A DNA stretch of 56,327 bases, taken from positions 1-56,327 of the forward strand of contig CAYXYK010000005.1 of the NCBI GenBank assembly GCA_964469335.1, written 5' to 3'. A model generated the notes under the pieces. That model was not told the origin of the DNA. It ran no database searches and saw only the letters and a program-made list of their open reading frames with translations. This DNA comes from an uncultured Candidatus Saccharibacteria bacterium. GTDB lineage: Bacteria > Patescibacteriota > Minisyncoccia > Phycocordibacterales > UBA6899. This document shows positions 2,398 to 50,330 of the stretch, in pieces (the first letter of the stretch is position 1; each line of letters opens with the position of its first letter). Position numbers and translations under genes: made by a program.

Positions 2398-2482
2398 GGT
2401 CACGAGTCACTAATTCGCACTGCTCATAAGTGCTCGCGACCCCGACTCGGCACCTCGCAAAGCCTCGGTAGTGCCTCCGTCT
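2398..2482 (-). repeat. Structured repeat (GGTCGC...GTGACC family), copy downstream of tRNA-Ser
   Basis: Minus strand AGACGGAG...GAGTCGGGGTCGCGAGCACTTA...TAGTGACTCGTGACC, similar to copies at 22885, 45851, 48203 and 50252. Confidence 0.75.
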
Positions 2483-2549
2483 TTCGAATCTCTCCTCCTC
2501 ATCGTAATGGCAAATCAAAAAGACGCCTTCGCGTCCTTTTGAGCCATTG

Positions 2550-2636
2550 CGGAGGAGGAGAGATTCGAACTCTCGATGCCCTTTCGGACATGCCACCTTT
2601 CCAAGGTGGTGGAATAAACCGCTATCCGACTCCTCC
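2550..2636 (-). tRNA. tRNA-Ser(GGA)
   Basis: GGAGGAG acceptor, anticodon arm CCACC-TTGGAAA-GGTGG, long variable arm, GTTCGAATC T-loop, G discriminator, no encoded CCA. Confidence 0.97.
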
Positions 2637-2735
2637 GTGCTTCGAAAATATACCAAATAATGCCGTAAATGCACAGGTTTCCAAAAGGTGCGTATCTTTG
2701 TGTACTTTACTTCACATTCTTCTATAATGGATTCC

Positions 2736-3947
2736 ATGTCTATATTCGCTTCTGTCGGTCATGCGGCGGGCGGGAACCCCGCAGCAGTCGGAGCCGACGC
2801 ATATCAAAATGCCCTAAAGGGGCTGGGTGACCAAAGGCCCACACTCGCATTCGTGTTCTCGTCGGTCGCGTACGAGCAAGAAACCATGCTCAAAGGGGTG
2901 CAGTCTGTCGCAGGCTCAGTCCCGATCGTCGGTTGTTCGACTGCCGGAGAGATTGTCACAGACGGTCCACTTGAGACCTCGTCAGTCGCCATCATGCTCC
3001 TCGCTGCTACTCCGGAATCACTCACCGCAACGATCGGTATCGGGAACAATGCCAAAAATGACGAACGAAAGGCAGGGCAGAGTGCTGCACAGGAGGTTGT
3101 GAATCTTGTCGGAGGCAAAGAGAAGTTACGCGGCTTCATTATGCTTGCGGATGGTCTCGCGGGAAACGGTGCTGAGATCGTGCGTGGTGTACTCGACGTG
3201 CTTGGTGATCATTTTCCGGTCGTCGGTGGCTCTGCCGGTGACGATTTCAAATTCAAACAGACCTATCAGTACGGCAAGGGTTCCGTGCATACCGGTGATG
3301 TCGTCGGAGTGGGCCTTTCCGGTGACTTCGCATTCGGTATCGGCGTGAAGCATGGATGGGGAGTTCTCGGTGTCCCTTCCCGTGTCACCAGATCGAACGG
3401 GCACATCGTTCATGAGATCGACGGCAAGCCGGCAATGCAGCTTTACGAGAAATACTTCGGAGATCGCGCAAAGTCGATCAAAGAAGAGGTACTTGCGACA
3501 CTCGCCGTGTCATACCCGCTTGGAGTGAAAACCCCGGGCAGCGAAGAAGATTATCTCATTCGTGATCCGATGTTTGTCGACGAGAATGGTTCGATCACCT
3601 GCGCAGCTGAGATACCAGAAGGCTCAGAGGTTCGTATCATGATGGGGACGCGCGAAAGTGCGATCACCATGGCTACTCAGGCTGCCGAAAATGCCCGCAT
3701 TCAGCTCGGCGGGAAAACCCCGAAAGCGATACTGATCTTCAACTGCATCGCTCGCAAGAAACTGCTTGGCATGCGCGGAGGAGAGGAGATCGACGCGATC
3801 CGCAGCATCCTCGGACGCGACGTCCCCCTCATCGGTTTCTATACATATGGTGAACAGGCTCCTATCAACGGAGAGAGCCGCAACATCGAACGCTGCAATA
3901 CGGTGTTTCATAACGAGACTGTTGTCATCTACGTCATCGCAGAATAG
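2736..3947 (+). CDS. FIST N/C domain signal-transduction protein
   Basis: VGCSTAGEI, VVGGSAGDD, FNCIAR and IGFYTYGEQ motifs; start chosen 7 nt after TATAAT (2723-2728), alternative ATG at 2727. Confidence 0.9.
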   Translation: MSIFASVGHAAGGNPAAVGADAYQNALKGLGDQRPTLAFVFSSVAYEQETMLKGVQSVAGSVPIVGCSTAGEIVTDGPLETSSVAIMLLAATPESLTATIGIGNNAKNDERKAGQSAAQEVVNLVGGKEKLRGFIMLADGLAGNGAEIVRGVLDVLGDHFPVVGGSAGDDFKFKQTYQYGKGSVHTGDVVGVGLSGDFAFGIGVKHGWGVLGVPSRVTRSNGHIVHEIDGKPAMQLYEKYFGDRAKSIKEEVLATLAVSYPLGVKTPGSEEDYLIRDPMFVDENGSITCAAEIPEGSEVRIMMGTRESAITMATQAAENARIQLGGKTPKAILIFNCIARKKLLGMRGGEEIDAIRSILGRDVPLIGFYTYGEQAPINGESRNIERCNTVFHNETVVIYVIAE

Positions 3948-3992
3948 GTCGTCAAGCTTTTTCCTGGACCTCGCTATTGATATACTACGCGA

Positions 3993-4475
3993 ATGCTCTA
4001 CTTCGACGGCATCACCACTCCGCTCGGCAGACTCCATATTGTCGTATCCGACGAGGCGATCGTCCGTATCTACTTTCCTGGGGAAAAATGGACCGAGCGA
4101 TACGAGCGTACTCCGAAGCATGAACTCATCGTGCTCGCGAAGACACAGCTCGCGGAATACTTCGCCGGCGAACGCCGCAAGTTCGATCTTCCGCTCCTCT
4201 TGCAGGGTTCTGAGTTCCAGATCAAAGTGTGGAAGACCATTGCAAAGATCCCATACGGCAAGACCATTACCTATGCCGACGAAGCGAAGAAAATGAGGAA
4301 GCCTGACGCGGTCCGCGCAGTCGGAACCGCGAACGGCAAGAACCCGATTCCGATTATCATCCCATGTCACCGCATCATCCCGAAGGGTGGGGGACTCGGC
4401 GGTTACTCGGGTGGTGTCAGCCGCAAGAAACTCCTCCTCAAACTCGAGCAGCATTATTTGGGGATAAAAAAGTAG
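3993..4475 (+). CDS. ogt: Methylated-DNA--protein-cysteine methyltransferase
   Basis: GSEFQ..VW, IPYGKTITY, RAVGTANGKNP and the PCHR active site. Confidence 0.95.
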   Translation: MLYFDGITTPLGRLHIVVSDEAIVRIYFPGEKWTERYERTPKHELIVLAKTQLAEYFAGERRKFDLPLLLQGSEFQIKVWKTIAKIPYGKTITYADEAKKMRKPDAVRAVGTANGKNPIPIIIPCHRIIPKGGGLGGYSGGVSRKKLLLKLEQHYLGIKK

Positions 4476-4495
4476 TTTTAGATTTTATCTAGCAG

Positions 4496-4521
4496 AAAAC
4501 AGCTCTGTTGAGCAGTTTTTT
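4496..4521 (+). terminator. Terminator after ogt
   Basis: AAAAC-AGCTC-tgtt-GAGC-A-GTTTTTT imperfect hairpin with T tract. Confidence 0.55.
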
Positions 4522-4535
4522 ATTACTCCATAATA

Positions 4536-4564
4536 TTGACAAGTTGGCCATTATGTACTAGTAT
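4536..4564 (+). promoter_or_regulatory. Sigma70 promoter of the three-gene accessory operon
   Basis: TTGACA-17 nt-TAGTAT. Confidence 0.75.
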
Positions 4565-4677
4565 GCCTGCCGGTAGCTCATCACATCTTGTGAAAGGAAA
4601 AACGTAAGTAACGTGAAGTGAATAATGAGTTTTCTCTGGTCCGCAACGGGTATTATGCCCAGAAAGGAAGAACGCAG

Positions 4678-5583: not shown

Positions 5584-5601
5584 CCCAAAGGAGAAGCACA
5601 C

Positions 5602-5874
5602 ATGAACGAAAGTCTCGGGGCTTCGAACGCCTCGTCCGTCCCTCCGGTTGCCGAGAGCCTCTCGGTGGAGCAGGGTGCGCAAGCATCCGAAGTCCGCACC
5701 AAGTGGATCATCGGCGCCGTCTTGGCAGCCCTCCTCATCGGCGGCGTGCTCGTCTTCATCCGAAGCAGCAACACTCCTGTCGAGGAAGTGCCCACCAGCA
5801 CTCAGGTCATCCCCGCTCAACCCGCGATCCCCCAACCCGCGTCCGTGCCCAAGGGCAAGGACTTCGGCTTCTGA
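5602..5874 (+). CDS. Hypothetical single-TM protein with Pro-rich tail
   Basis: SD AAAGGAG, TM WIIGAVLAALLIGGVLVFI. Confidence 0.7.
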   Translation: MNESLGASNASSVPPVAESLSVEQGAQASEVRTKWIIGAVLAALLIGGVLVFIRSSNTPVEEVPTSTQVIPAQPAIPQPASVPKGKDFGF

Positions 5875-5900
5875 TCTTCCACCCACGAAAGGAAACCCCC

Positions 5901-6962: not shown

Positions 6963-6987
6963 GCCTTTCACAAGAAGCACATTCCGC

Positions 6988-7025
6988 GAGCGCCAACCCC
7001 ACAAGGGCTGGCGCTCTTTTCTTTT
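6988..7025 (+). terminator. Intrinsic terminator closing the accessory operon
   Basis: GAGCGCCA...TGGCGCTC followed by TTTTCTTTT. Confidence 0.8.
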
Positions 7026-7076
7026 CCGGCGGGAACGGAACATGCGAGCCTCACGCGAATGCTTTATAATGTAGCC

Positions 7077-11194: not shown

Positions 11195-11229
11195 GGCCCG
11201 TCACCACGAGATCGACGGGCCTTTTTTTT
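11195..11229 (+). terminator. Intrinsic terminator
   Basis: GGCCCGTC...GACGGGCC followed by T8. Confidence 0.8.
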
Positions 11230-11230
11230 A

Positions 11231-11322
11231 CCAATTTTGCCCACCGCACAGAGTGTCGGTGGCAGCAAAATTGAGTATTTCCTGAATCGTCATGAAGGGA
11301 CGATTCAGGAAGCTCCGACTTT
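11231..11322. repeat. Double-hairpin repeat, family B copy 1
   Basis: CCAATTTTGCCCACC...GGTGGCAGCAAAATTGAG then TTCCTGAATCGTC...GACGATTCAGGAA-GCTCC. Confidence 0.85.
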
Positions 11323-11570
11323 TAAGTATCTCGGCGAAAAATAGAGGACTTTCAAAATTTAGCGAAGCAACTTGAGTCTTTTACTTAGGACACATTGGTT
11401 CGCGAGTGTCATCTCGTAACGTCACTTGTTGGTCTCTCTGTCACCATTGTGTCGTAATGCTTTATCCACAGAAATACTCTTGTCGTAGAAAAATAACACG
11501 ATACTATTGTATATGAATCCTGTGGGTTCTTAGTAGCCGGTACCGTCAATGGTCCCGGCTTCTGTTTTTC

Positions 11571-11740
11571 CCAATTTTGCCCACCGCGCAAAGCGTCGGC
11601 GGCTGCAAAATTGAGGATGTCTTAAATCGCCATGTCGAGGCGATTTAAGACCCCCCCAGATTTTTCTCATTGCGCAAAGCGCAATGGTGAAAAATTGAGG
11701 ACTTCCGAAATTGCTATTGCAGAGCAATTTCGGAAGCTCA
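11571..11740. repeat. Double-hairpin repeat, family B copies 2 and 3 in tandem
   Basis: Units at 11571 and ~11658, each with a CAATTTT..AAAATTGAGG hairpin plus a second hairpin. Confidence 0.85.
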
Positions 11741-12566: not shown

Positions 12567-12602
12567 GAAATACGGAAAGTTGTACACAGATTGTCCACGT
12601 TC

Positions 12603-12689
12603 CCAATTTTGCCCACCACGCAAAGCGATGGTGGCTGCAAAATTGAGGACTTCTGAAATCGTCACGAGAAGACGATTTCAGAAGCTCCA
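12603..12689. repeat. Double-hairpin repeat, family B copy 4
   Basis: CCAATTTTGCCCACC..GGTGGCTGCAAAATTGAGGAC then TTCTGAAATCGTC..GACGATTTCAGAA-GCTCC. Confidence 0.85.
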
Positions 12690-12785
12690 AGTATCCACAT
12701 CTTATCCACGTAAAAAATAGGAGCAGGAGGTACAGGTTGTTACAATTATGACAAGCAAACGTTACCGCGTTGCGCGATTCTTTCC

Positions 12786-18883: not shown

Positions 18884-21190
18884 ATGTCGAGCGCATCCAC
18901 ATCGAGAGCTGCCAAGGCGGTTGTCGTAAAGGCGAAAGCCGGTTCAGTATTAAAGGAGGTTCGTAAGCGCGACGGTTCAGTCGCCCCGTTCGACAAGGAA
19001 CATATCAAGAGCGCAGTCCTCCGTGCGATGCTCGCATCAGGCGAAGGAGGGGAGAAGGACGCAGATGTCGTCACTCACGCTGTCGTCAGTGCGCTTGAGA
19101 AGATCGTGAAGGGTCGCAAGGGCTATATCCCGAGCGTCGAAGAGATCCAGGACACCGCAGAAGCGGAACTCATCTACAAGAATTTCGCAAAGACCGCGAA
19201 GGGTTACATCATCTATCGCGAAGAGCACAAGAAGATCCGCGAAGTCACCGGCATCGTCCCAGAGGCGATCAAGGAGCTCGCACGTGAGTCGAAGAAATAT
19301 TTCCGCAATTCACTCGCGGAGTTCGTCTACTACCGCTCGTACTCACGCTGGATCGATCACGAACAGCGCCGCGAGACCTGGATCGAGACCGTCGACAGAT
19401 ACATGAACTTCATGCGCGAGAATCTCGACAAGAAGCTCACCGAGAAGGAGTACGACGAAGTGCGCGAGGCGATCCTTCGCCACGACGTGATGCCATCGAT
19501 GCGCCTGATGTGGGGTGCAGGCCCGGCAGCAAGGAAGACCAACGTCGTCGCGTACAACTGCTCGTTCATCGCTCCGTCGAAGCTCCGCGATTTCGGCGAG
19601 ATCATGTATCTCTCGATGTGCGGTACCGGCGTCGGCTACTCGGTCGAGTCACTCACCGTGCAGCAGCTTCCGCAGATCAAGAAGCAGACCGGCAAGGCGC
19701 ACAAAGTGCATGTGGTCGGCGACTCCAAGGAAGGTTGGGCAGATGCCTACGTCACTGGACTTGAGGCATGGTTTAACGGCGAGGACATCAAATTCGACTA
19801 CTCACAGCTTAGGCCAGCTGGTGCGCGCCTCATGACCATGGGCGGCAAATCTTCAGGCCCGCAGCCACTTGTGAATCTCATCGACTTCACTCGCGAGAAG
19901 GTATTCAAGCGCCAGGGTCGCCGCCTCTCGAACCTCGATGTCCACGATATCGTCTGTAAAATAGGTGAAGTCGTAGTGTCCGGCGGCGTAAGGCGTAGCG
20001 CACTCATCTCACTCTCAGACCTCGACGATTACGAGATGCGCCATGCCAAGGACGGACAGTTCTACGTCACCGAGCCACAGCGCATGATGGCGAACAACTC
20101 GGCCGTCTACACCCATCGCCCGTCGACTGCAGAGTTCATGGACGAATGGATAAGTTTGATGAAGTCAGGCTCAGGCGAGCGCGGTATCTTCAATCGTGGT
20201 TCACTCGAGAAGCAGATCCCGGAGCGCCGCAAGAAGACCCTGATGAAGGGGATCGACACCTGTGGTACCAACCCGTGCGGTGAGATCATCTTGAAGAGTA
20301 AGCAGTTCTGCAACCTCACCGAAGTCGTCATTCGCGCAGAGGACACCAAGCACACCCTCTTGAAGAAGATGCGCCTCGCAGCCATCCTCGGTACCTACCA
20401 GTCGACCCTCACCAACTTCAAGTATCTTTCGGCAGAGTGGAAGAAGAACTGTGAGGAAGAGCGCCTCCTTGGTGTCTCGATCACCGGCCAGTGGGACAAT
20501 CCGGAGCTCGTCCACGACCCGAAAGTCCTCGCAGACCTTCGCGACGAAGCAGTCGCCGTAAACAAGACCTATGCAAAGCGCTTCGGCATCAACCAGTCTG
20601 CAGCCGTCACCGCGGTCAAGCCTTCAGGCACTGTCTCGCAGCTCGTCGACGCATCAAGCGGTATGCACCCTCGCCACGCTCCGTACTACATCCGCCGCAT
20701 CCGCATCAGCGCCTCGGACGCACTCTTCAAGATGCTCCGCGATCAGGGCATTCCGTTCGCACCCGAAGTCGGACAGAGCGCAGAGAACGCCGTCACTTAC
20801 GTGATCGACTTCCCGGTCAAGTCTCCGAACCAAGCGGTCGTGAAGGATGACATCACCGCACTCGAGCAGCTCGTCCACTGGAAGCTCATCAAAGAGAATT
20901 ACACCGAGCACAATCCGTCCGTGACGATTTCGGTAGGGGAGAACGAATGGCTCGCCGTCGCATCATGGCTGTATGAGAACTGGGACATGGTGGGAGGACT
21001 TTCATTCCTGCCTCGCTCGGAGCACGTCTACCAGCTCGCGCCGTATGAGGAGATCACCAAGGAGAAGTATGAGGATCTCGCAAAAAGATGGGAGGATATC
21101 GATTTCTCGAAGATCGTGAGTTACGAGAAGCTGGATGAGACGCAGGGGGCGAAAGAGCTAGCCTGTGTCTCCGGCGTCTGCGAAATCTAG
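18884..21190 (+). CDS. nrdJ: Class II (adenosylcobalamin-dependent, monomeric RTPR-type) ribonucleotide reductase with N-terminal ATP cone
   Basis: ATP cone VRKRDG...FD..I, PSMRLMW.AG, GGVRRSALISLS, TNPCGEI, CNLTEV, AVKPSGTVSQL and C-terminal CVSGVCEI. Confidence 0.93.
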   Translation: MSSASTSRAAKAVVVKAKAGSVLKEVRKRDGSVAPFDKEHIKSAVLRAMLASGEGGEKDADVVTHAVVSALEKIVKGRKGYIPSVEEIQDTAEAELIYKNFAKTAKGYIIYREEHKKIREVTGIVPEAIKELARESKKYFRNSLAEFVYYRSYSRWIDHEQRRETWIETVDRYMNFMRENLDKKLTEKEYDEVREAILRHDVMPSMRLMWGAGPAARKTNVVAYNCSFIAPSKLRDFGEIMYLSMCGTGVGYSVESLTVQQLPQIKKQTGKAHKVHVVGDSKEGWADAYVTGLEAWFNGEDIKFDYSQLRPAGARLMTMGGKSSGPQPLVNLIDFTREKVFKRQGRRLSNLDVHDIVCKIGEVVVSGGVRRSALISLSDLDDYEMRHAKDGQFYVTEPQRMMANNSAVYTHRPSTAEFMDEWISLMKSGSGERGIFNRGSLEKQIPERRKKTLMKGIDTCGTNPCGEIILKSKQFCNLTEVVIRAEDTKHTLLKKMRLAAILGTYQSTLTNFKYLSAEWKKNCEEERLLGVSITGQWDNPELVHDPKVLADLRDEAVAVNKTYAKRFGINQSAAVTAVKPSGTVSQLVDASSGMHPRHAPYYIRRIRISASDALFKMLRDQGIPFAPEVGQSAENAVTYVIDFPVKSPNQAVVKDDITALEQLVHWKLIKENYTEHNPSVTISVGENEWLAVASWLYENWDMVGGLSFLPRSEHVYQLAPYEEITKEKYEDLAKRWEDIDFSKIVSYEKLDETQGAKELACVSGVCEI

Positions 21191-21311
21191 CCCATTTTCA
21201 GCGCATTACTTTGTCGCAATAAAGCGGCGACCCCATCACGGTACGAGAGTACCGCTCAGGGGTACGCCGCTTTTTGCTTCGCGTACTGCATCTGAAAATG
21301 GGCTAGATTTC
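21182..21311. repeat. Hairpin element A flanked by a perfect 20-bp inverted repeat that includes the nrdJ stop
   Basis: GAAATCTAGCCCATTTTCAG (21182-21201) and CTGAAAATGGGCTAGATTTC (21292-21311); core shared with 44400-44488. Confidence 0.88.
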
Positions 21312-22884: not shown

Positions 22885-22980
22885 GCCACAAGTCACTAGG
22901 CATATGCGGAGCAGAGCTCCTTATCTGCCAAGTGCTCCCGGCCCTGTCTCGTCGTCACAGGTGACATGACTCCGACTCGT
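22885..22980 (-). repeat. GGTCGC...GTGACC family copy not linked to a tRNA
   Basis: Minus strand GAGTCGG...GAGCACTTGG-CAGATAAGGAGCTCTGCTCCGCATATG-CCTAGTGACTTGTGGC aligns with the 48203 copy. Confidence 0.7.
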
Positions 22981-23027
22981 TTTCGTTCGGCAAAAGCAAA
23001 GCAGTTTGCTTTTGCAAATACTGAAAC

Positions 23028-23076
23028 GAAAACGCCCGAACATGTCGGGCGTTGTGGGTCTCGCGGTGGAGACGGG
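23028..23076 (-). repeat. Cassette junction type I (terminator plus GTCTC hairpin), orphan copy
   Basis: AACGCCCGAACATGTCGGGCGTTGTGGGTCTCGCGGTGGAGACGGG, near-identical to 23701 and 24517. Confidence 0.85.
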
Positions 23077-23700: not shown

Positions 23701-23746
23701 GAACGCCCGAACTTGTCGGGCGTTGTGTGTCTCGCGGGGGGACGGG
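23701..23746 (-). repeat. Cassette junction type I / terminator of the 23747 gene
   Basis: AACGCCCGAACTTGTCGGGCGTTGTGTGTCTCGCGGGGGGACGGG directly after the stop. Confidence 0.85.
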
Positions 23747-24439: not shown

Positions 24440-24516
24440 ATGAGGCCCTTTCCAATGAGCGAGTTGAAATTCCAAATATAGTTCTACGGTATTTCCTCAA
24501 TGTGTCAATAAAAACC

Positions 24517-24560
24517 AACGCCCCGGGTGGGGCGTTGTGGGGTCTCGCGGGGGAGACGGG
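24517..24560 (-). repeat. Cassette junction type I
   Basis: AACGCCCCGGGTGGGGCGTTGTGGGGTCTCGCGGGGGAGACGGG; T tract abuts TTGACA. Confidence 0.85.
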
Positions 24561-27565: not shown

Positions 27566-28861
27566 ATGAATGAAGCAAAACGAGGAGAGGCTCAGTATTG
27601 GTGGAAGAACGCGACCATCTATGAGCTATACGTCGACAAATTCGCCGGTGACTTCAAGGGGCTAACGACAAAGCTCGACTACCTCGTTTCACTTGGAATA
27701 AATACGCTCCATATCCTCCCGCATTATCCGTCTCCGATGATCGATGAGGGGTATGATATCACCGACTACCGCAATGTTCGTCCTGAGCTCGGGACACTCG
27801 ATGACATGCGGGAGTGTATCGCACAGGCAAAAGCTCGCGGTATACATATCATCCTCGACATGGTACTCAACCATGTCTCTTCGCAGCACCCGTGGTTCAT
27901 TGCAGCGCGCTCATCAAAAGATGATACCAAAAGGGGATATTTCCTCTGGAGCGAAACAGGAACCGAGTACCCAGACTCGCTCAATGCGTTTCCTGACATC
28001 AAGCCATCGAACTGGATAGCCGATCCTCTCACCGGCGACTTTTATTTCGCAACTTTCTACCCCGAGCAGCCGGATCTCAACTGGGATAACCCAGAGGTCG
28101 TGGAAGGCATGCTCGCTAACATGGATTTCTGGGCTGAAATGGGAGTGGACGGATTTCGGCTCGACGCTGCTTGTTTCCTCATCAAGCGTGCCGGAACGAA
28201 TTGCAGGGGATTGCCGGAGACTCATGCGATGATCAAACGTGTCCGCAAACATCTCGATGAGAAGTACCCGCGCGGAGTTGTGCTGCTCGGGGAAGCAGCA
28301 CAAAGCATCGAAGAGACGAAAGCGTATTTCGGCGACGGGGATGAGTGTCAGTTGATGTATAATTTCCCGCTCATGGCTGAGATGTGGCTTTCATTGAAAG
28401 ATGGGAATCCTTCCGCAGCGAGACGGATGTCAGAGCTCTCAAATGGAATTCCCGAGACTTGTGAATGGGCGACCTTTGTTCGGAATCATGATGAGATCGA
28501 GCTCCGCTTTCTCGAGTCTGCCGAAGTGAGATCAGGATTGCTCGATTTTTTGGATCCTGCAAAGGAATATCTTTTCAACAAGGGTGTCGCAACATCGAAA
28601 CGTATCGCCAGTATATTCACGGATAAGAAAGATATGCTCGCTGCATTCGAACTTCTCTACGCTCTCCCTGGTGCTCCGGTCATGTATTACGGAGACGAGA
28701 TCGGAATGCGAAATCTTCCCGTTATGGTCGGCATCGTCGATACGCGAAAATATGTACGCGGCCCGTTCGACTGGGTCGAGGCAGAGAGGCAGGAGGAGGA
28801 TCCCTCTTCTTTGCTCGTTGAGGTGAGAAGAGTGATCGCGAATCGCAACACTTCTTTATAA
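27566..28861 (+). CDS. GH13 alpha-amylase family, trehalose synthase (TreS)-like
   Basis: DEGYDITDY, DMVLNHVSSQHPWF, QPDLNWDNP; catalytic GFRLDA, LLGEA and RNHDE; lacks the C-terminal beta domain. Confidence 0.88.
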   Translation: MNEAKRGEAQYWWKNATIYELYVDKFAGDFKGLTTKLDYLVSLGINTLHILPHYPSPMIDEGYDITDYRNVRPELGTLDDMRECIAQAKARGIHIILDMVLNHVSSQHPWFIAARSSKDDTKRGYFLWSETGTEYPDSLNAFPDIKPSNWIADPLTGDFYFATFYPEQPDLNWDNPEVVEGMLANMDFWAEMGVDGFRLDAACFLIKRAGTNCRGLPETHAMIKRVRKHLDEKYPRGVVLLGEAAQSIEETKAYFGDGDECQLMYNFPLMAEMWLSLKDGNPSAARRMSELSNGIPETCEWATFVRNHDEIELRFLESAEVRSGLLDFLDPAKEYLFNKGVATSKRIASIFTDKKDMLAAFELLYALPGAPVMYYGDEIGMRNLPVMVGIVDTRKYVRGPFDWVEAERQEEDPSSLLVEVRRVIANRNTSL

Positions 28862-28893
28862 AAAAGCACCCGCCGGGTGGCGGGGCTTGGGGG
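28858..28893. repeat. 36-bp direct repeat (junction type II), left copy
   Basis: ATAAAAAAGCACCCGCCGGGTGGCGGGGCTTGGGGG, identical at 29935-29970. Confidence 0.92.
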
Positions 28894-29906: not shown

Positions 29907-29935
29907 ATTATACTATATTTTTGTTATAAAGTCAA
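29907..29935 (-). promoter_or_regulatory. Near-consensus sigma70 promoter fused to the junction terminator
   Basis: TTGACT-17 nt-TATAAT on the minus strand. Confidence 0.85.
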
Positions 29936-29970
29936 TAAAAAAGCACCCGCCGGGTGGCGGGGCTTGGGGG
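29935..29970. repeat. 36-bp direct repeat (junction type II), right copy
   Basis: Identical to 28858-28893. Confidence 0.92.
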
Positions 29971-44385: not shown

Positions 44386-44506
44386 CACAAGATTCTGACG
44401 CATTGCTTTGTCGCAATACGGCGGCGACCCCATCACAATACAGGAGTACTGCTCAGGGGTACGCCGCCTTTTGCTTCGCGCACTGCATTCATAATCTTTT
44501 GTTATT
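44381..44506. repeat. Hairpin element A, second copy, flanked by a 14-bp inverted repeat that includes the lepA stop
   Basis: AATAACACAAGATT (44381-44394) and AATCTTTTGTTATT (44493-44506); core similar to 21202-21291. Confidence 0.85.
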
Positions 44507-45231: not shown

Positions 45232-45642
45232 ATGCTCCGCGCGCTAGATTTCAGAGAAAGGACCCGAATTCGTCGTTTTGTCTATGCAAAACCGACCATT
45301 TTAGCGATGTTCGTCTTGTCGCTTCTCTCTCTGCATGGCGCATGGGGAATGTATCTGAAAAGCAAGGAAGCGCTTGCGAACAGGGACAAGGCGGTACTGG
45401 AAGCCAATGTGCTCATGGCTCATCAGCAAGAACTTCATGCAGATATCGGCAAACTTTCTTCCGACCGTGGGCAAGAAGAAGAGATACGCAACAGATTCAT
45501 GGTTGCGAAAGACGGTGAAAAAGTTATCATAGTATCCGAACCGGACGATGAAGTGCTGCATAGCGTCACGGTCGATGACAACAATCAGACCAGCACACTC
45601 ATCGACAGGTTCAAGGCAGCAGTCGGTTTGTCAGGCAATTAA
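45232..45642 (+). CDS. Septum formation initiator (FtsB/DivIC-like)
   Basis: TM, coiled coil, L.SDRGQEEEIRNRFMVAKDGEKVIIV motif. Confidence 0.8.
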   Translation: MLRALDFRERTRIRRFVYAKPTILAMFVLSLLSLHGAWGMYLKSKEALANRDKAVLEANVLMAHQQELHADIGKLSSDRGQEEEIRNRFMVAKDGEKVIIVSEPDDEVLHSVTVDDNNQTSTLIDRFKAAVGLSGN

Positions 45643-45645
45643 ATT

Positions 45646-45719
45646 GCGAGATTAGTTTAGTGGCAGAACTAGTGCTTCCCAAGCATTGGGCGGGAGTTCG
45701 ATTCTCCCATCTCGCACCA
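45646..45719 (+). tRNA. tRNA-Gly(CCC)
   Basis: GCGAGAT/ATCTCGC acceptor, AGTGC-TTCCCAA-GCATT, GTTCGATTC, encoded CCA. Confidence 0.97.
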
Positions 45720-45850
45720 AAACAAAAACCGGCAGGGAAGCCGTTTTTTGTTTTGGTGCGAGAAGCAAAGTGCCTGCGCACTTTGCGTGGGAGAATCGAA
45801 GCCCTTCTCCGTTATTTGTGAAGAATTATTATTCTGAGCAAATCGGAAAG

Positions 45851-45902
45851 AGGTACTGAAGCTGTAAGCTTCGATTCCGCATTTGCTTAGTGACTTGTGA
45901 CC
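45851..45902 (+). repeat. Partial GTGACC-family copy
   Basis: GAAGC..GCTTC hairpin followed by CTTAGTGACTTGTGACC. Confidence 0.6.
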
Positions 45903-46105
45903 AAAACGAGACTCAAAGAGCGCCCTGCGGCGCTCTTTGTATGGGGAAATCAAAAAACTTTCCGTATTCGTGGGAAGCTCGGCATCGAGCAAAACACCAA
46001 AAGTGTACAAAAGCGACAAACTTCAATTTCTCATTATCCTTTGTCCCATATGGCTATTTTGGCGGCATCACACAAACCCCATTTGTTCATGGTAAAATCA
46101 TGCAT

Positions 46106-46723
46106 ATGCTTGAGAAAATAAAACAAAACCCATCATTATTCGTAGGTTTCGCGATTCCAGTGTTCATGGTGCTTTTCATCGCAGGGGTGATCTATGTGCC
46201 CCAACTTTGGAATAGTACGCCACCACCGCAGTACGATTTCGTTTATGCGACCGGCGAGGGAGTGATCTATCCTTCCTATGGCGCAGGATACTACTCTTAC
46301 CCCTATGCCGCGAATGGCGCGCGACTCAAATACGTCTATCGTGTCGTGGACGGCAAGATCGTCAAAGAGGAACCTGAGCTCGATCAACCTGCGGCGATGA
46401 AGACTGCACCTTCGATATCTCCGACTGTTGTCGTTGATATCGAGCCGAAGTTTTTCCGCTTCCACGTCAGTGATGGCACGAGTGAAGCACTCAACGCCAC
46501 ATCGGCAATGCAGCTTTCGCTCGACACGAATGCGAAAAGTCCGGACGGATATGAGCTCGTGAGAGGTAATTACAATGGAGGGGAATTCTTCCCGTTCTAT
46601 TATGGAGGGTCAGGTGACTATTACAGTAAATATCTCAAGCGGGGAAGTTTTGCGAAAAAGATCGAACTGAATCTCCCGCAGAATTACTATGGCGAGTATT
46701 TCCTCGGCTGGGTAGCGAAATAA
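46106..46723 (+). CDS. Hypothetical single-TM exported protein
   Basis: TM then P.P.YDFVYA and SPDGYEL motifs; Tyr/Gly-rich. Confidence 0.75.
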   Translation: MLEKIKQNPSLFVGFAIPVFMVLFIAGVIYVPQLWNSTPPPQYDFVYATGEGVIYPSYGAGYYSYPYAANGARLKYVYRVVDGKIVKEEPELDQPAAMKTAPSISPTVVVDIEPKFFRFHVSDGTSEALNATSAMQLSLDTNAKSPDGYELVRGNYNGGEFFPFYYGGSGDYYSKYLKRGSFAKKIELNLPQNYYGEYFLGWVAK

Positions 46724-46724
46724 T

Positions 46725-47711
46725 ATGGAAAAGACACTTCTTATCGAAAGTCTCCGCAGTGCACTTCGGGATGGCACCGTCACTGAAAAGGAACTCCGCT
46801 CACTCTTAAGTGGGGATGGGGCGCCGATCACTGATCATGCCGTTTCCGATCACCGTGTGACACTTTCAGATGTGCTGTATTACGTAGGCGGGGGAATCGT
46901 TTTCATCGGCATCGGCATCTTCGCAGCGAATCACTGGGAAGACATGGGTAGCGCGATGCGCATCTTCGTCACCCTCGGGTTAGGAATCGCATCGTTCATT
47001 TCTGCCGTTTTACTCACGAAGAGCGGGAAAATGGATCGCCTCCCGGATGCACTACACCTCGTTGCCGGACTACTTATCCCCGGTGGAGTATTCGTCACAC
47101 TCGACGAATTGGGCTTCCGGGGCGGTTCGTGGGGGCCGGGGCTTATCTTCTTGGGCTTCACGCTGCTTTACCTGCTTGCGTATCTGTTCTACCGGCGCGG
47201 AGTCCTGGCGCTGTTCGGGGTGCTCTACGGCACATTTGCGACGCTACTCCTCTCTTCAGCGGTCATTGGCGACTTGCCGGTATTCAGTGGGGATAAATTC
47301 GCTGCATATCGCATTTTAGGCCTTGGAGCTGCATATCTTTTCCTCGCTTACGGTATGGTAGAAACGCGACTCCGGCCACTTGCATGGTGGCTGTACGGAT
47401 CAGGCTCTCTCGCTGTGCTATCTGCGGCGCTATGGCTTTCCGGCTGGAAGCCCGAGCAGTCGATGTTCTGGGAACTATCCTACCCGCTCTACGTTTTCGG
47501 CGCGATGTTCATCTCTACGAAATTGAAGTCACGGGCGATGTTGTTCTTCGGGGCTGTATTTCTCGTTGGGTACATCTTCAAGATTACCGCGGAGTACTTC
47601 CAAGACAGTCTTAGTTGGCCACTTCTCCTCATTCTCGCCGGTTTTCTCTTGATGGGAGTAGGGTACCTTACGTTCTACCTGAACAAGAGATACCTCAAGG
47701 CAGTGAACTAA
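46725..47711 (+). CDS. DUF2157-like multi-TM protein
   Basis: VLYYVGGGIVFIGIGIFAANHWEDM motif; about 9 TMs. Confidence 0.8.
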   Translation: MEKTLLIESLRSALRDGTVTEKELRSLLSGDGAPITDHAVSDHRVTLSDVLYYVGGGIVFIGIGIFAANHWEDMGSAMRIFVTLGLGIASFISAVLLTKSGKMDRLPDALHLVAGLLIPGGVFVTLDELGFRGGSWGPGLIFLGFTLLYLLAYLFYRRGVLALFGVLYGTFATLLLSSAVIGDLPVFSGDKFAAYRILGLGAAYLFLAYGMVETRLRPLAWWLYGSGSLAVLSAALWLSGWKPEQSMFWELSYPLYVFGAMFISTKLKSRAMLFFGAVFLVGYIFKITAEYFQDSLSWPLLLILAGFLLMGVGYLTFYLNKRYLKAVN

Positions 47712-47827
47712 CCTCGGTAACTTTGCGGTGCCATAGGGTCTATAGATCACCCTCTTTTTTAGTCGGTGGGGTGTGTGCTACAATAGCATCATCAAAGAGC
47801 ATAATTATCCGGTTAATTCTCATTACC

Positions 47828-48073
47828 ATGAAACCAGTCGCAATCTACACAACAGAGACATGCAGTTACTGCAAACTCGCAAAAGAGTTCTTCCAGAAGA
47901 ACAACGTTCAGTATCAGGAATTCAACGTCGGCACCGATCTTGAGAAACGTCAGGAAATGATCGAGAAGAGCGGACAGATGGGAGTCCCGGTCATCACCAT
48001 CGACGGAGAAGTTGTCGTCGGTTTCAATAAGCCTCGACTCCAAGAACTCCTCGGCGTTGTTGAGACAGCATAA
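47828..48073 (+). CDS. Glutaredoxin-like protein (NrdH/YruB family)
   Basis: YT..TCSYC and SGQMGVPVI.I.G..VVGF motifs. Confidence 0.92.
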   Translation: MKPVAIYTTETCSYCKLAKEFFQKNNVQYQEFNVGTDLEKRQEMIEKSGQMGVPVITIDGEVVVGFNKPRLQELLGVVETA

Positions 48074-48136
48074 AGTTGCATCGTTGTCTGCAAAGACCTA
48101 TTATGACAAAAGCTCACTCCGGTGAGTTTTTGTTTT

Positions 48137-48313
48137 GCCCCCATAGTTTAATGGATAGGAATCAATCGAGACTCAAAATGTGGAACATTTTGCGATTGAT
48201 TCGACCGGAGCTATGCCGAGGTATTACGAGGCGCGAGGTGGGGTCGCAAGCACTTAGTAGATGAGAAGCTTTGCTTCGAATATACTTAGTGACTAGTGAC
48301 CAGCTCCGTCCTA
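48137..48313 (+). pseudogene. Interrupted 5' half-copy of tRNA-Arg
   Basis: GCCCCCATAGTTTAATGGATAG (48137-48158), ~142-nt structured insert, then CAGCTCCGTCCTA (48301-48313). Confidence 0.7.
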
Positions 48314-48338
48314 GTGAAATGCATAAGTACGAAAATTT

Positions 48339-48413
48339 GCCCCTATAGTTCAATGGATAGAACAGCTCCGTCCTAAGGAGTAGATGTAGGTTCGATTCCC
48401 GCTGGGGGCACCA
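48339..48413 (+). tRNA. tRNA-Arg(CCT)
   Basis: GCCCCTA/TGGGGGC acceptor, GCTCC-GTCCTAA-GGAGT anticodon arm, encoded CCA; G32 and one T-stem mismatch. Confidence 0.9.
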
Positions 48414-48843
48414 TATGAAATAACAGCCTTTTGGCTGTTATTTCATATGGTGCCCCAAACAAGCAGACTACTCTGCTTCGTGCGGGAATCGAAAGGGTTT
48501 TCATTATCGAGTCATCGAGATTGAAAACCACCCGCGGCGGTTGCCGAGATTCCCGCTGGGGGCACAAGTCAGACACAAAACCTTCCCTGCGGAAGGTTTT
48601 GTGCTACTTGTGAGCCGCAGCGATGTTTCGCCAGCAGGCGAAACCGCGAGGTGGGGTCGCGGAAATCCCAGCGCGACGGCGATGGGATTATCCGTGACCC
48701 ATACTCCCAATGCCATACAATCTCTTTCGCTGTAGGTACGTTTTCCAGAGAGTCTCTTCGCGGAAATCCCAACGCGACGGTGAGAAAGTTATCCGTGACC
48801 AAGGTGACCCACATACACCACCTGCGGCGGTAGCCGAGATTCC
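48414..48843. repeat. Nested repeat cluster downstream of tRNA-Arg
   Basis: Inverted tRNA 3' copy (48448-48493), direct copy GATTCCCGCTGGGGGCAC (48548-48565), repeat pairs 48658/48759 and 48527/48817. Confidence 0.85.
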
Positions 48844-48913
48844 TCTCACATTGCTTCTTCCCGCGTTGAATGTATGATATCCGCAGTCCATCGTTATTTG
48901 AAAGGGGATTCAC

Positions 48914-49855
48914 GTGACCCAAAAAAGACCAGGCCTGCCTGCGGTCAGGACACAAGTTGCGGCATTCGGAACCTCCGTTTTTGCGCCATCTCAGGATGTG
49001 TTTGGGGAGAATGCGAGCGAATGGGCGAGACGAGTCCTCCTTCGCGTTCCCACTGGATCCGCTGTCGAGATGGCACTCTCCCTCGTCAGCCTCGTCGGTG
49101 TTCGCTATGTCCGCGAATTGCTTGCGCAAGCGATATTGATGAAGAAAATCGGTCGATGTGATCTCGAACAACTGTACCTCTCGCAGCGTGACGAAGTATT
49201 TGCCGAACTTCCACTCGTCACGCTCGAATTCCTTGCGTCGATCAACTCTGACGGAGTGCAGATCTTCACCCTCGAAGACCTGCACCAGCTCGAAGCGAAG
49301 CGACATGGGGACGTCGATACCATGCGGCACGTACCGTACGAGCGCGATCTGTCCTATTTCCTGTTCGATGAAGAGCGCCGCAGGACGGTATCCACGGAGG
49401 TCCTTACGCGCTGGGGTGACAACCTTCAAGGCCGTGACATGAACATGCTTGCTGTCATCGATGTCGAGCTGATAAAGAGAAAGGTCCGTAGGCTTTCCCA
49501 GGGCGACATCGGACACCGACTGAAAGTCGCTGCGAAGCAGGACCCGAAAGGGAACGCTGTGCGGGTCTATCTCGAGCTCCTGTTCTCAAGGTCCGCGAGA
49601 AAAGGAAGCGTCCGGTCTGAGGTCGTCAGTGTGCTGCTTGAGATGCTGTCGCCCGCAGAGCGGACCGGAAAGATCGATTTCACAGCGGCAAGCGAAGTCT
49701 TCAAGTTCTATGTCAACAACCCGCTCATCCCGCTCGAAGATCGTGAATGGGTCATCAGGGAGATCACCCAGTATTGCAACGCATTCGCCAGTCATTACCT
49801 GCGGTTCGTCGAAGAGGGCGTCAACGAGAACCCTTTTCGTACTAGGCGGTCGTGA
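48914..49855 (+). CDS. Hypothetical helical protein
   Basis: GTG start with SD GAAAGGGG; long open frame; terminator-like hairpin at 49874-49906. Confidence 0.7.
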   Translation: MTQKRPGLPAVRTQVAAFGTSVFAPSQDVFGENASEWARRVLLRVPTGSAVEMALSLVSLVGVRYVRELLAQAILMKKIGRCDLEQLYLSQRDEVFAELPLVTLEFLASINSDGVQIFTLEDLHQLEAKRHGDVDTMRHVPYERDLSYFLFDEERRRTVSTEVLTRWGDNLQGRDMNMLAVIDVELIKRKVRRLSQGDIGHRLKVAAKQDPKGNAVRVYLELLFSRSARKGSVRSEVVSVLLEMLSPAERTGKIDFTAASEVFKFYVNNPLIPLEDREWVIREITQYCNAFASHYLRFVEEGVNENPFRTRRS

Positions 49856-49920
49856 CCTATCCATGTGCGCTCGGAACGGTGGCTTTGTGTCACCGTTCTT
49901 TTTTTTGCTATAATCATCAT

Positions 49921-50211
49921 ATGACCGAACAATTCGACTATGACAAGATCGATGAGATACTCGACCTTACTCGCGAGAACAATCGTATCTTGCGCACCAT
50001 GCACCGAAGAATGCTGTGGAGCCAGATCTTCACCTTCATATACTGGCTGGTCATCCTTGGTATCGCCGGTTGGTCATATTATTTCTTGCAGCCGTATTTG
50101 ACCAAGTATCTCAATAGTTATGAGACGATCATGAACGCCCTTGATACCATGGATCAGGGTGGAAAAGCCTTGCCGTCGAATCTCCAGGGACTTCTCGATA
50201 AGGTGAGGTAA
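49921..50211 (+). CDS. Hypothetical single-TM protein
   Basis: L.RENN.ILR.MHR...W..I...YW..I pattern; ATG 6 nt after TATAAT. Confidence 0.8.
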   Translation: MTEQFDYDKIDEILDLTRENNRILRTMHRRMLWSQIFTFIYWLVILGIAGWSYYFLQPYLTKYLNSYETIMNALDTMDQGGKALPSNLQGLLDKVR

Positions 50212-50251
50212 AAAAGAAAAATCGCACGTTCGGCATTACCTCAATAGGGTT

Positions 50252-50330
50252 GGTTCAAGTTGCAAACTCGCTGAGCTCGTAAGTACTTGCGACCCGACTC
50301 GCCGCCTCGAAGACTCGGCATGCTCCGTCT
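50252..50330 (-). repeat. GTGACC-family copy downstream of tRNA-Phe
   Basis: Minus strand AGACGGAGCATGCCGAG...GAGTCGGGTCGCAAGTACTTA...CTTGAACC. Confidence 0.75.

Follow-up and report, generated by a model that had tools for sequence, protein, structure and literature searches.

Genetic elements that integrate into tRNA genes reportedly fall into sublocation classes, at the anticodon loop, the T-loop and the 3' end, a scheme of 2002 attributed to Williams. Folded single strands serve as recombination sites in integron attC and in the attP(+) of the CTX phage, where structure is conserved over sequence and one of the two strands folds. The CTX attP imitates dif, and CTX and other Xer-exploiting elements encode no enzyme in cis. 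In E. coli, the non-coding RtT/rttR repeats (Rfam RF00391) lie behind tyrT-tyrV, and every unit closes with a copy of the tRNA 3' end; RtT is not known to carry a mirror arm or to occur outside one operon.

The window analyzed here, a stretch of 56,327 nucleotides from an uncultured Patescibacteria genome, carries dispersed GGTCGC...GTGACC repeats, which are genuine copies of a DNA module that is conserved, folds tightly, contains no gene and occurs behind tRNA genes in the ultra-small Patescibacteria.

The core family, its distribution and its fold

The repeats form the two-hairpin core (~85-135 nt) of a multi-copy family with ~20 copies in the 1.28-Mb host genome (G000; nhmmer, model R1). 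As proposed in the first-pass annotation, we searched related CPR genomes, and 56 of 61 relatives, as well as 32 of 37 genera, proved to carry the core family. The core motif gave 111 exact matches, of which nearly all came from Paceibacterota MAGs; IMG/VR yielded none. Its invariant nucleotides are retained across an order and beyond. No core matched Rfam, permissive thresholds included, and no description was found in Rfam or in the literature searched. Genome-wide, cores typically lie 54-62 nt (range 22-83) after a tRNA or tmRNA gene and in the same orientation, and the link to tRNA trailers first noticed in the window is thus confirmed across the genome. The core is shared behind at least 35 tRNA species and tmRNA; some copies stand instead at the terminators of protein genes, and one lies upstream of a gene for a recombinase.

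All seven stretches originally listed for the window are present and related, several of them with revised limits (Table 1). Those at 2398-2482(-) and 48203-48301(+) are full cores as first drawn, and the one given as 22885-22980 ends at 22977. The segment 48647-48699(+) belongs to the family, but merely as the 3' hairpin of an 87-nt variant core, 48613-48699(+). Within 45851-45902(+), the family is represented by the 3' remnant at 45879-45902, whereas 45801-45878 is the core of another cassette type. The stretch 50252-50330(-) is a related but decayed copy, whose ortholog in the sister genome G003 is intact.

The core is built of two hairpins at a junction, and its helix is irregular, with an invariant G.T pair, a bulged A and a T.T mismatch. 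Among 123 distinct core copies, 96.5% of pair cells were canonical compared to 78% in shuffles, and double compensatory changes were seen in 19 of 20 pairs, values that were matched in 0 of 500 shuffles; when the pairing partners were slid by 1-3 columns, just 30-42% of cells could pair. The covariation initially described for the closing stem and for an internal hairpin is real and forms part of this general pattern, which also includes locus-specific variable hairpins. Moreover, G.T outnumbers A.C by 184:15 (72:15 without the invariant pair), indicating that the core fold is selected on the tRNA-sense strand, and the sense strand folds 8-11 kcal/mol better than its opposite. The fold z of the non-decayed cores in the window ranges from -2.9 to -7.4. 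Taken together, these results show that selection maintains the core structure on the sense strand.

Target-matched arms and the order of insertion

In tRNA sense, a full unit of ~150-250 nt runs from the tRNA 3' end (T, the tRNA from position 57 to the gene end) through a terminator-like hairpin, a mirror arm (M), the core and T* to the native trailer. M comprises 17-22 nt and is the reverse complement of the same tRNA from T54 onward, i.e. of the T-loop-to-acceptor strand; T* is a second, direct copy of the tRNA end, namely the displaced old 3' end. The hairpin, followed by a T-run, is found between tRNA and core in essentially every unit, and a mirror lies 47-123 nt downstream in ~26 of 47 tRNA and tmRNA genes. 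The boundary of M is fixed to the nucleotide at T54, and the unit junctions fall in the conserved T-loop (TTCGAA) common to all tRNAs. M and the complement of T share 94% identity, and the mismatches between M and T (10 G.T versus 16 A.C) show no wobble bias, which argues that the arms are templated DNA; they copy the genomic trailer and not the post-transcriptional CCA. The arms thus prove to be plain DNA copies of each target.

Table 1. Positions of core copies, frames and associated tRNA genes in the window.
Feature	Positions	Strand	Evidence and remarks
T*, decayed direct copy of tRNA-Ser 3' end, GAATCACCTCCAC	2385-2397	-	
Core copy A	2398-2482	-	R1 99.5 bits; 5' hairpin AGACGGAG...GAGTC; 3' hairpin GGTCGCGAG...CTCGTGACC; MFE -36.3 kcal/mol, z -3.2; opposite strand -27.5
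Copy A mirror arm	2483-2500	-	Exact 18-nt reverse complement of tRNA-Ser(GGA) positions 54-71 (window 2552-2569)
Terminator-like hairpin with T-run between tRNA-Ser and mirror arm	2506-2548	-	Read from sequence; missed by a simple terminator scan because the A-run/T-run is counted into the stem
tRNA-Ser(GGA), gene bearing copy A	2549-2636	-	ARAGORN, Rfam
Core copy B, intergenic, not at a tRNA, after a terminator hairpin	22885-22977	-	R1 82 bits; z -2.85
Copy B frame (next three rows)	22978-23053	-	
Copy B mirror arm CGAACGAAAACG	22978-22989	-	Mirrors terminator 23023-23053
Copy B small hairpin	22990-23015	-	
Copy B terminator with T-tract CGTTTTCGTTTC	23023-23053	-	
tRNA-Gly(CCC)	45646-45719	+	
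tRNA-Gly frame: palindrome, small hairpin, mirror	45710-45800	+	Repeat search
Terminator palindrome including tRNA-Gly 3' end	45710-45763	+	Repeat search
Small hairpin behind tRNA-Gly	45764-45787	+	
tRNA-Gly T-arm mirror TGGGAGAATCGAA	45788-45800	+	
'Type I' core, different cassette family	45801-45878	+	Recurrence behind ~13 tRNAs
Copy C, 3' remnant of GTGACC-family core	45879-45902	+	nhmmer, repeat search
Region preceding copy D: tRNA-Arg pseudo-copy and hairpin	48137-48200	+	Layout conserved in sister genome G003
Pseudo-copy of tRNA-Arg positions 1-25	48137-48160	+	
Hairpin preceding copy D	48161-48200	+	
Core copy D	48203-48301	+	R1 91.7 bits; z -3.2; 5' end GACCGGAGCT mirrors the following anticodon-arm copy
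Direct copy of tRNA-Arg(CCU) anticodon arm, AGCTCCGTCCTA, flanking copy D	48302-48313	+	
tRNA-Arg(CCU)	48339-48413	+	
Newer unit behind tRNA-Arg (next four rows)	48405-48547	+	Repeat search
52-nt perfect palindrome with tRNA-Arg end	48405-48456	+	Repeat search
Small hairpin, newer tRNA-Arg unit	48457-48482	+	
T-arm mirror, newer tRNA-Arg unit	48483-48493	+	
'Type III' core, newer tRNA-Arg unit	48494-48547	+	
Displaced old tRNA-Arg 3' end	48548-48565	+	17/17 identical to gene
Own, different terminator of the displaced tRNA-Arg end	48566-48612	+	
Core copy E, 87-nt variant	48613-48699	+	R1 34.6 bits; closing stem GGTCGCGGA...TCCGTGACC; MFE -54 kcal/mol, z -7.4
Copy F, partial duplicate of copy E 3' hairpin	48758-48800	+	84% identical; repeat search
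Core copy G, 3' hairpin decayed	50252-50330	-	R1 60 bits; z +0.49
Copy G frame: mirror, hairpin, palindrome	50331-50415	-	Repeat search
T-arm mirror, copy G frame	50331-50340	-	
Small hairpin, copy G frame	50341-50359	-	
56-nt palindrome, copy G frame	50360-50415	-	Repeat search
Palindrome left arm, starting with acceptor mirror	50360-50371	-	
Palindrome right arm, tRNA-Phe 3' end	50404-50415	-	
tRNA-Phe(GAA)	50404-50479	-	

The two copies of the tRNA end are unequally preserved, M averaging 12.9/14 and T* 10.9/14 (p = 6e-6), which shows that T* decays while M and core persist. In the host genome, 7 of 11 cores were intact with T* decayed to chance level. The test indicating that cores remain intact once T* has decayed is biased in that high-scoring cores alone were sampled. 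A young unit adopts a Y-shaped fold with an 18-bp M:T* helix (-70 kcal/mol, z -9). The frame is shared by at least three to five core families that are unrelated to one another, among them the 'type I' core (long hairpin, GTACTG, short hairpin), which recurs behind ~13 tRNAs of the host genome.

In sister species, cores that are 93% identical lie behind tRNA-Leu(GAG) and tRNA-Ser(UGA), and likewise behind tRNA-Lys(UUU) and tRNA-Ser(GGA), each with arms matching its own tRNA. The nearest-neighbor core was found in the same genome for 14 copies (3.2 expected), and tandem and nested copies occur, including tandem units of 199 nt. Across the genus, the tRNA-Phe and tRNA-Ser(GGA) loci are empty or carry different cores, and orthologous copies persist between species, for example at tRNA-Phe and at copy D in the host genome and G003. 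The native trailer TTTGTTTGGAAG directly follows tRNA-Ser(GGA) in three species without a full cassette there, and follows the distal T* in G004. In 20 of 23 young units, the terminator or trailer after T* differs from that after T; in some units T and terminator are duplicated exactly (52 nt in L031; 3 of 23 young units). These arrangements show that new units enter beside the tRNA, pushing older units and the native trailer outward. An orphan copy (C1:118318-118445) has kept its tRNA-His arm (19/21) and is now separated from tRNA-His by a 27-kb serine-recombinase island. Arms also match non-tRNA targets, namely terminators and a recombinase leader, for which an empty site can be seen in G000. 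In one empty/filled pair (G002), the terminator retained by the empty allele is the proximal and not the distal one.

Competing explanations for the cassettes

No dedicated cassette enzyme was found among the enzyme families tested. The 96%-complete host genome had no match to PF01797 (Y1 TnpA/RAYT) or PF07282 (TnpB), with control genomes positive, and no IS110-type enzyme was found in it; a retron-like RT occurs in only 2 of 61 genomes. The sole tyrosine recombinase is Xer-like, and no evidence links either this enzyme or the four large serine recombinases found to the cassettes.

The first-pass annotation had considered a non-autonomous element, a view that fits the same core behind different tRNAs, presence and absence within the genus, tandem and nested copies, and the lack of any gene inside. 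We tentatively favor a non-autonomous integrative element that would insert as a folded single strand using host functions. Such a cassette would reside at the 3' ends of tRNA and tmRNA genes, and now and then at ordinary terminators, in Paceibacteria-type Patescibacteria. Its mobile form may be a single-stranded dumbbell, in which the T:M stem would imitate the duplex of the target gene's 3' end, capped on one side by the terminator hairpin and on the other by the core. By analogy with CTX phage attP and integron attC, entry could proceed by one-strand exchange within T and then be fixed by replication, and a host or trans-acting enzyme recognizing the irregular core helix might serve as catalyst. 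Several findings speak against this reading. Neither an excised or circular form nor a catalyst was observed; a fixed-arm dumbbell alone does not explain how arms are re-matched at a new tRNA, so an additional step would be needed, for instance mismatch correction, copy-choice or core swapping; unrelated cores in one frame argue for a core-independent mechanism; a G.T:A.C ratio of ~5:1 is typical of RNA structures and less expected for DNA hairpins; and the empty G002 allele would require a secondary deletion.

The RNA-like G.T excess, together with sense-strand selection and covariation reaching into locus-specific hairpins, would rather be expected of a functional trailer RNA. In this view, read-through or an unrecognized promoter would yield a transcript of M-core(-T*) in tRNA sense, and the cassettes would persist through their benefit to the host. 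The RNA could clamp the tRNA 3' half in precursors, or take on a Y shape with an M:T* helix that copies the acceptor/T-stem minihelix, so that RNase P, 3' nucleases and the CCA enzyme would mature it. Intact cores beside a decayed T*, orthologs kept between species and the stable young-unit fold fit this explanation, as does the displaced native terminator after T*, which would provide a proper 3' end. We nevertheless regard it as rather unlikely. A terminator-like hairpin with a T-run intervenes between tRNA and M, a scan for sigma-70-like promoters in front of the cores found none, and the M:T mismatches and the decay of T* imply that neither helix involving M looks RNA-selected. Loci that are empty or differently occupied within one genus, unrelated cores in the same frame, and copies at protein-gene terminators and before a recombinase gene also count against it. 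The ncRNA co-transcribed with tRNAs that had been suggested at first is doubtful, although the G.T excess shows the sense strand to be the folded one, so that an RNA role retains some probability. Improbable, in our view, is a nucleic-acid-guided system analogous to IS110 bridge RNA, TnpB omega RNA or CRISPR guides, with the core as scaffold and M as the guide by which an unlinked effector finds a complementary tRNA-gene end, or any other matching sequence, and inserts or acts there. One scaffold with at least 36 different arms, each matching the neighboring tRNA or tmRNA, guide-like arm length, the exact boundary, non-tRNA targets and the retained tRNA-His arm of the orphan would suit it; however, TnpB, IS110-type and Y1 enzymes are absent and RT is rare, unrelated cores sharing the arm logic would call for several effectors, the guide adjoins a target already hit, arms decay like neutral DNA, and an arm templated at insertion explains the same data.

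We give slightly less weight still to a passive by-product of replication, whereby forks would stall and switch template at palindromic terminators, copy the tRNA end in fold-back fashion and then jump by microhomology via the conserved T-loop. The outcome would be inverted-plus-direct triplications and strongly folded inserts shuffled from locus to locus, with neither a dedicated enzyme nor a function. The T-hairpin-mirror-T layout is that of an inverted triplication, and junctions in the one sequence common to all tRNAs, exact T-plus-terminator duplications, tandem 199-nt units, mirrors of the genomic trailer, several cores in one frame and the failure to find an enzyme all agree with it. 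Invariant nucleotides kept across an order and beyond, as well as covariation and strand asymmetry, point instead to selection on the core itself; the different terminator after T* in most young units indicates that these are not simple local triplications, and the occupancy of ~26/47 genes with nucleotide-precise boundaries is hard to reach by accident. The REP/PATE-like membership first suggested, i.e. a REP/REPIN or IS200/IS605-derived element mobilized by RAYT/TnpA, or else an orphan TnpB omega RNA, seems very improbable. The cassette is indeed short, structured, multi-copy, intergenic, located at gene 3' ends and orientation-specific, but the proposed search for a RAYT or TnpA gene came back negative, as did those for TnpB and in Rfam, and REP and IS200/IS605 elements are not known to copy their target both inverted and directly, unlike the mirror arm-core-direct copy layout seen here.

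Comparison with known systems

REP/REPIN elements with RAYT and IS200/IS605 PATEs resemble the cassettes in being short, palindromic, extragenic, multi-copy, non-autonomous and located at gene ends; the cassettes differ in their target-matched arms, their tRNA specificity and a genome devoid of RAYT, TnpA and TnpB. IS110 bridge RNA and TnpB omega RNA likewise combine an unvarying folded scaffold with a short stretch that can pair with the target of insertion, yet the defining proteins are absent here, the arm behaves as templated DNA and several unrelated scaffolds occupy the frame. RtT likewise comprises non-coding units behind a tRNA gene with a copy of its 3' end, and the cores had no match to RF00391 even at E <= 10.

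Similar in layout are the elements that integrate into tRNA and tmRNA genes (attL/attR direct repeats), where the insert lies between one complete tRNA gene and a displaced, partial 3' copy and regenerates the tRNA end, newcomers insert beside the tRNA, and tmRNA genes serve as targets too; such elements are also known to accrete in tandem and to leave integrase-less 'cis-mobilisable' remnants. The cassettes differ in measuring only ~150-250 nt without a gene or integrase, in their extra inverted target copy, in using one core for at least 35 tRNAs and in occupying some non-tRNA terminators. Compared to attC and attP(+), they show no IntI-type integrase and no sign of Xer acting, target a tRNA end instead of attI or dif, carry arms that vary per copy and hold no cargo gene. 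With these sites they share structure conserved over sequence, the folding of one strand and the lack of a cis-encoded enzyme; the core helix is similarly irregular, in that one mismatch is invariant, one base is bulged and the terminal hairpin varies, and the T:M stem would imitate a duplex target much as CTX attP does.

The core, its fold and its distribution

All seven stretches that the first-pass annotation had grouped as a dispersed GGTCGC...GTGACC family are present in the window and related to one another; small corrections apply to the copies at 48647-48699, 45851 and 50252-50330 (see the table). A profile built from four of the copies matched 16 places (nhmmer) in the 1.28-Mb, eight-contig genome that holds the window (G000), and a covariance model of the core (R1, built on alignment A1 of 13 copies) matched 23. 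The association with tRNAs seen earlier was recovered as well: nearly all copies lie downstream of a tRNA or tmRNA gene and on the same strand, typically at a distance of 54-62 nt (range 22-83).

Core copies, inserts, enzymes and other repeats in the window and in G000. Positions are those of the window unless a contig of G000 (C1 to C4) is named.
Feature	Position	Strand	Remark
Variant core copy (87 nt)	48613-48699		3' hairpin at 48647-48699
"45851" copy	45879-45902		family membership limited to this stretch
Decayed core copy	50252-50330		fold z +0.49
"Type I" insert	45801-45878		behind tRNA-Gly(CCC)
"Type III" insert	48494-48547		behind tRNA-Arg(CCU)
tRNA-Arg(CCU), proximal unit	48405-48547
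tRNA-Arg(CCU), old 3' end (perfect) plus own terminator	48548-48612
Pseudo-copy of tRNA-Arg(CCU) positions 1-37	48137-48313		upstream of the real gene; holds copy D
Terminator family starting CGAGA(C/T)TCAAAGAGCNCCC...	45903-45940; 48170-48195; C1:177736-177780; C2:53364-53405		behind several tRNAs and cassettes
Orphan core copy	C1:118318-118445		arm matches tRNA-His, 19/21
Orphan cassette	C4:3350-3800		matches tRNA-Gln(CUG)
Retron-like reverse transcriptase	C3:131579-132733	-	best PADLOC model RT_outgroup
Four large serine recombinase genes	C1:161622-163280, 131764-133503, 403889-405214, 144317-145879		open frames of two antisense into tRNA-Arg(GCG) and tRNA-His 3' ends; first flanked by inverted repeats of ~105 nt
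90-nt repeat	21182-21311; 44399-44488		89% identical; a perfect inverted repeat of 20 nt (21182-21201 / 21292-21311) frames the first copy
99-nt two-hairpin intergenic repeat	11225-11323; 11565-11663; 12597-12695		three copies, 73-77% identical
Terminator hairpin, then GTGGGTCTCGCGGTGGAGACGGG	23031-23076; 23702-23740; 24510-24560		three occurrences
36-nt terminators	28858-28893; 29935-29970		two, identical
270-nt tandem repeat	55833-56327		85% identical; within a long open frame (54424-56325) at the window end

The core folds into two hairpins. At the base of the 5' hairpin are 3 bp, GAC/GTC, that covary (GGC/GCC, GCC/GGC); its stem is variable. The 3' hairpin is closed by the helix GGTC-G-N-GAG / CTC-N-T-GACC and is marked by a G.T that is invariant (112 of 118 copies), one bulged A, a T.T mismatch within an ACTTAG/CTTAGT helix, and an apical hairpin that varies. 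The pairing figures come from an alignment of 127 matches (123 distinct, from ~50 genomes) whose fitting to the model flatters them; the slid and shuffled controls were made on the same alignment. Canonical pairs fill 96.5% of pair cells, compared to 78% after shuffling and 30-42% with the partners slid; double compensatory changes affect 19 of the 20 core pairs (410 cells), and 0 of 500 shuffles reached any observed pairing measure. In the core, G.T and T.G pairs outnumber A.C and C.A pairs by 184:15 (72:15 minus the invariant pair), and the strand with the tRNA sense folds 8-11 kcal/mol better than its complement; the core fold is therefore selected on the tRNA-sense strand. The same asymmetry and fold energies rule out, for the GGTCGC...GTGACC core, an antisense-strand gene for a tRNA-like minihelix.

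Cores were found in 56 of 61 relatives, representing 32 of the 37 genera of the order, at 1-29 copies per genome, and, with stricter filters, in 26 of 401 genomes drawn evenly from the phylum. An exact 20-base core motif occurs in 111 stretches of the species-representative genome set, nearly all in MAGs labelled Paceibacterota/Parcubacteria (Lloyd-, Yonath-, Kaiser-, Taylor-, Zambryski- and Nomurabacteria); this motif is absent from IMG/VR, and the core is without match in phage and plasmid collections. Searching Rfam at gathering and at permissive thresholds (up to E <= 10) returned tRNAs, RNase P and hairpin noise only, with no family matching any copy, and RtT RNA (RF00391) gave no match at E <= 10 within 2200-2700 and 45600-50500 of the window. 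No description of such elements was found in the literature searched in full text.

The frame of copied tRNA ends

Reading the trailers of all 47 tRNA and tmRNA genes of G000 revealed a recurrent frame in which the tRNA is followed by a hairpin with an A-run and a T-run, a mirror arm (M, the reverse complement of the 3' strand of that tRNA), an insert, and a displaced direct copy (T*) of the tRNA 3' end (T). The hairpin is called terminator-like by eye; a simple promoter/terminator scan, which cannot score A/T-clamped hairpins, was uninformative. A mirror of the T-loop and T-stem stands behind ~26 of the 47 genes and is perfect (12/12) behind 19 of these; M invariably ends at the complement of T54, and T* invariably starts at position 57. 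The insert is either the core or a member of at least two other folded families, here "type I" and "type III", of which "type I" follows ~13 tRNAs in G000; further insert types occur in relatives, within D-loop or variable-loop copies. No gene lies within the units. A hammerhead reading of the CTGA...GAAA motif of "type I" was rejected, position 9 being other than A (by eye) and Rfam giving no match.

Two variant layouts were observed alongside. Copy D, one of the seven window copies, carries an arm that mirrors the anticodon arm, not the T-loop, a layout that is also conserved in G003, a sister genome. At 7 of 8 positions the canonical core start AGACGGAG agrees with the complement of the tRNA-Arg(CCU) anticodon arm, which may be chance. 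At five tRNA-Phe loci of relatives (L037, L041, L044, L046 and L047 of G019, G016, G012, G015 and G011, respectively), other inserts occupy D-loop or variable-loop positions of second, partial tRNA-Phe copies, which lie 3' of the intact tRNA-Phe as direct duplications without a mirror arm.

At genes that do not encode CCA, the mirror arm runs on into the genomic trailer; its template was therefore DNA or a primary transcript and not mature tRNA. Over 828 positions, M and T mismatch as G.T 10 times and as A.C 16 times. As this leaves no wobble bias, the arms, unlike the core, behave as templated DNA. Among 67 first-position cassettes, M matched positions 57-70 better than did T* (mean 12.9/14 vs 10.9/14; paired Wilcoxon p = 6e-6), a comparison giving a slight advantage to the mirror, which was allowed one split for a small hairpin. 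The match of T* is bimodal in these cassettes, 21 being perfect and the others near chance; survivors with a decayed T* are expected, because perfect direct repeats invite deletion. The core is intact in units with a decayed T* in a sample that was picked by core score, and in 7 of 11 such units in an unbiased census of G000.

Entry beside tRNA genes and movement between them

Window copy A belongs to tRNA-Ser(GGA). At this gene, a TTTGTTTGGAAG-like trailer lies directly 3' of the tRNA in three species without a full cassette, and in the relative G004 it lies after the distal T*, past a new terminator, mirror and core. In young units, defined as first-position cassettes with T* at least 16/17 identical (n = 23 among those examined), the sequence after T* differs from that after T in 20, often with a second, different terminator, and T plus trailer is exactly duplicated in 3. 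In the window, tRNA-Arg(CCU) is trailed first by the proximal unit, next by an old 3' end that is still perfect and has a terminator of its own, and last by an older core, the 87-nt variant copy. From these layouts it follows that the units enter adjoining the tRNA, carrying a terminator-like hairpin with them and displacing the previous end. The arrangement is that looked for in a tRNA-att integrative element, with a complete tRNA and a displaced direct 3' copy flanking the insert and the native flank after the distal copy; the entry of the units follows the logic of attL/attR at tRNA genes, for which PMC9897764 gives the general rule. The positions of the trailers rule out insertion after the native terminator for tRNA-Ser(GGA) and most young units. 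One allele pair of the relative G002 is an exception, the empty allele retaining the proximal terminator, and secondary deletion is the only explanation that we can offer for it. Synteny alignment of empty G000 tRNA loci with filled relatives was prevented by the divergence of the flanks.

Two orphan copies in G000 fit entry beside a tRNA. The arm of one matches tRNA-His, whose gene is 27 kb off, beyond an island with large serine recombinase genes; the other, on contig C4, matches tRNA-Gln(CUG), which is on contig C1. Islands of at least 14-27 kb appear to part tRNA-His and tRNA-Gln(CUG) from old cassettes.

Cores that are 93% identical, variable hairpins included, stand behind tRNA-Leu(GAG) in G014 and tRNA-Ser(UGA) in G010, and again behind tRNA-Lys(UUU) in G004 and tRNA-Ser(GGA) in G007, and in both pairs the arms match the local tRNA. 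The nearest relative of a copy lies behind another tRNA of the same genome in 14 cases (3.2 expected; maximum 10 in 500 shuffles) and behind the same tRNA of another genome in 4 (2.2 expected). Five genomes of the genus have an empty tRNA-Phe locus; in others the locus holds different core subtypes or tandem copies. Tandem units of 199 nt occur in G012. Taken together, the core is structured and selected on one strand, the arms are copied from each target with junctions precise to the nucleotide, the units enter beside tRNAs and contain no gene, and cores move between tRNAs.

Enzymes, mechanism and known systems

The first-pass annotation had offered two readings, a REP/PATE-like element and an RNA co-transcribed with tRNAs. 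The former label does not apply, as RAYT, TnpA and TnpB are lacking in G000 and no Rfam family matches any copy: the Y1 HUH domain (PF01797) of RAYT and IS200/IS605 TnpA has 0 matches in G000 and matches in 6 of 14 control genomes, and TnpB (PF07282) is missing from the 96%-complete G000. The IS110-type DEDD recombinase (PF01548) likewise has 0 matches in G000. The single retron-like reverse transcriptase of G000 recurs only in G010 among the 61 relatives, and reverse transcription in its retron, group II intron and tRNA-primed forms was rejected, with such an enzyme in 2 of 61 genomes vs cores in 56, and with mirrors that copy the genomic trailer and not CCA. The recombinases encoded by G000 comprise a single Xer-like enzyme of the tyrosine type and four of the large serine type. 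Two of the latter have open frames that run antisense into tRNA 3' ends, those of tRNA-Arg(GCG) and tRNA-His. No link between the cassettes and the Xer-like recombinase, the reverse transcriptase or the serine recombinases was found. One core in G016 is inserted upstream of a large serine recombinase gene, at a site that is seen empty in G000.

By analogy with CTX attP and integron attC, the most economical mechanism we propose would be integration of a folded single strand, in which the T:M stem would mimic the target duplex and the core could serve as the recognition module for a host enzyme. Three points sit uneasily with such integration: the re-matching of the arms once a core reaches a new tRNA, the presence of unrelated cores in the same frame, and the RNA-like wobble ratio of the core. 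Its rivals are a functional trailer RNA, a guide-type system and passive template switching; an RNA co-transcribed with the tRNA is weakened by the terminator-like hairpin that separates tRNA and core.

Should our reading hold, over half of the tRNA genes in many ultra-small bacteria would bear a type of mobile or structured element for which no description was found, one that rebuilds the tRNA end, supplies a terminator of its own and contains the address of its target as a mirror image. For annotation, the units are a source of tRNA fragments and palindromes in Patescibacteria MAGs, and of breaks in their assembly; for tRNA biology, they bear on how tRNA genes end and terminate in these genomes; and for mobile-DNA biology, they would represent a gene-less element with its target specificity written in a short exchangeable arm. 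Either as a folded-strand recombination substrate or as a structured RNA class, they would be new.

With folded single-stranded DNA sites of the attC and CTX attP type, the core shares a strand-specific fold with conserved irregularities. The known targets of the arms comprise at least 35 tRNA species, tmRNA, terminators and a recombinase leader. It is conceivable, although we consider it improbable, that Patescibacteria harbour a programmable insertion module without a protein gene, in which a constant folded core and an exchangeable "address" hairpin of 17-22 nt would, with a putative trans-acting enzyme, insert beside any matching sequence. Were this the case, the module would constitute a new class of nucleic-acid-addressed DNA insertion, unlike CRISPR-associated transposons, TnpB and the IS110 bridge systems.
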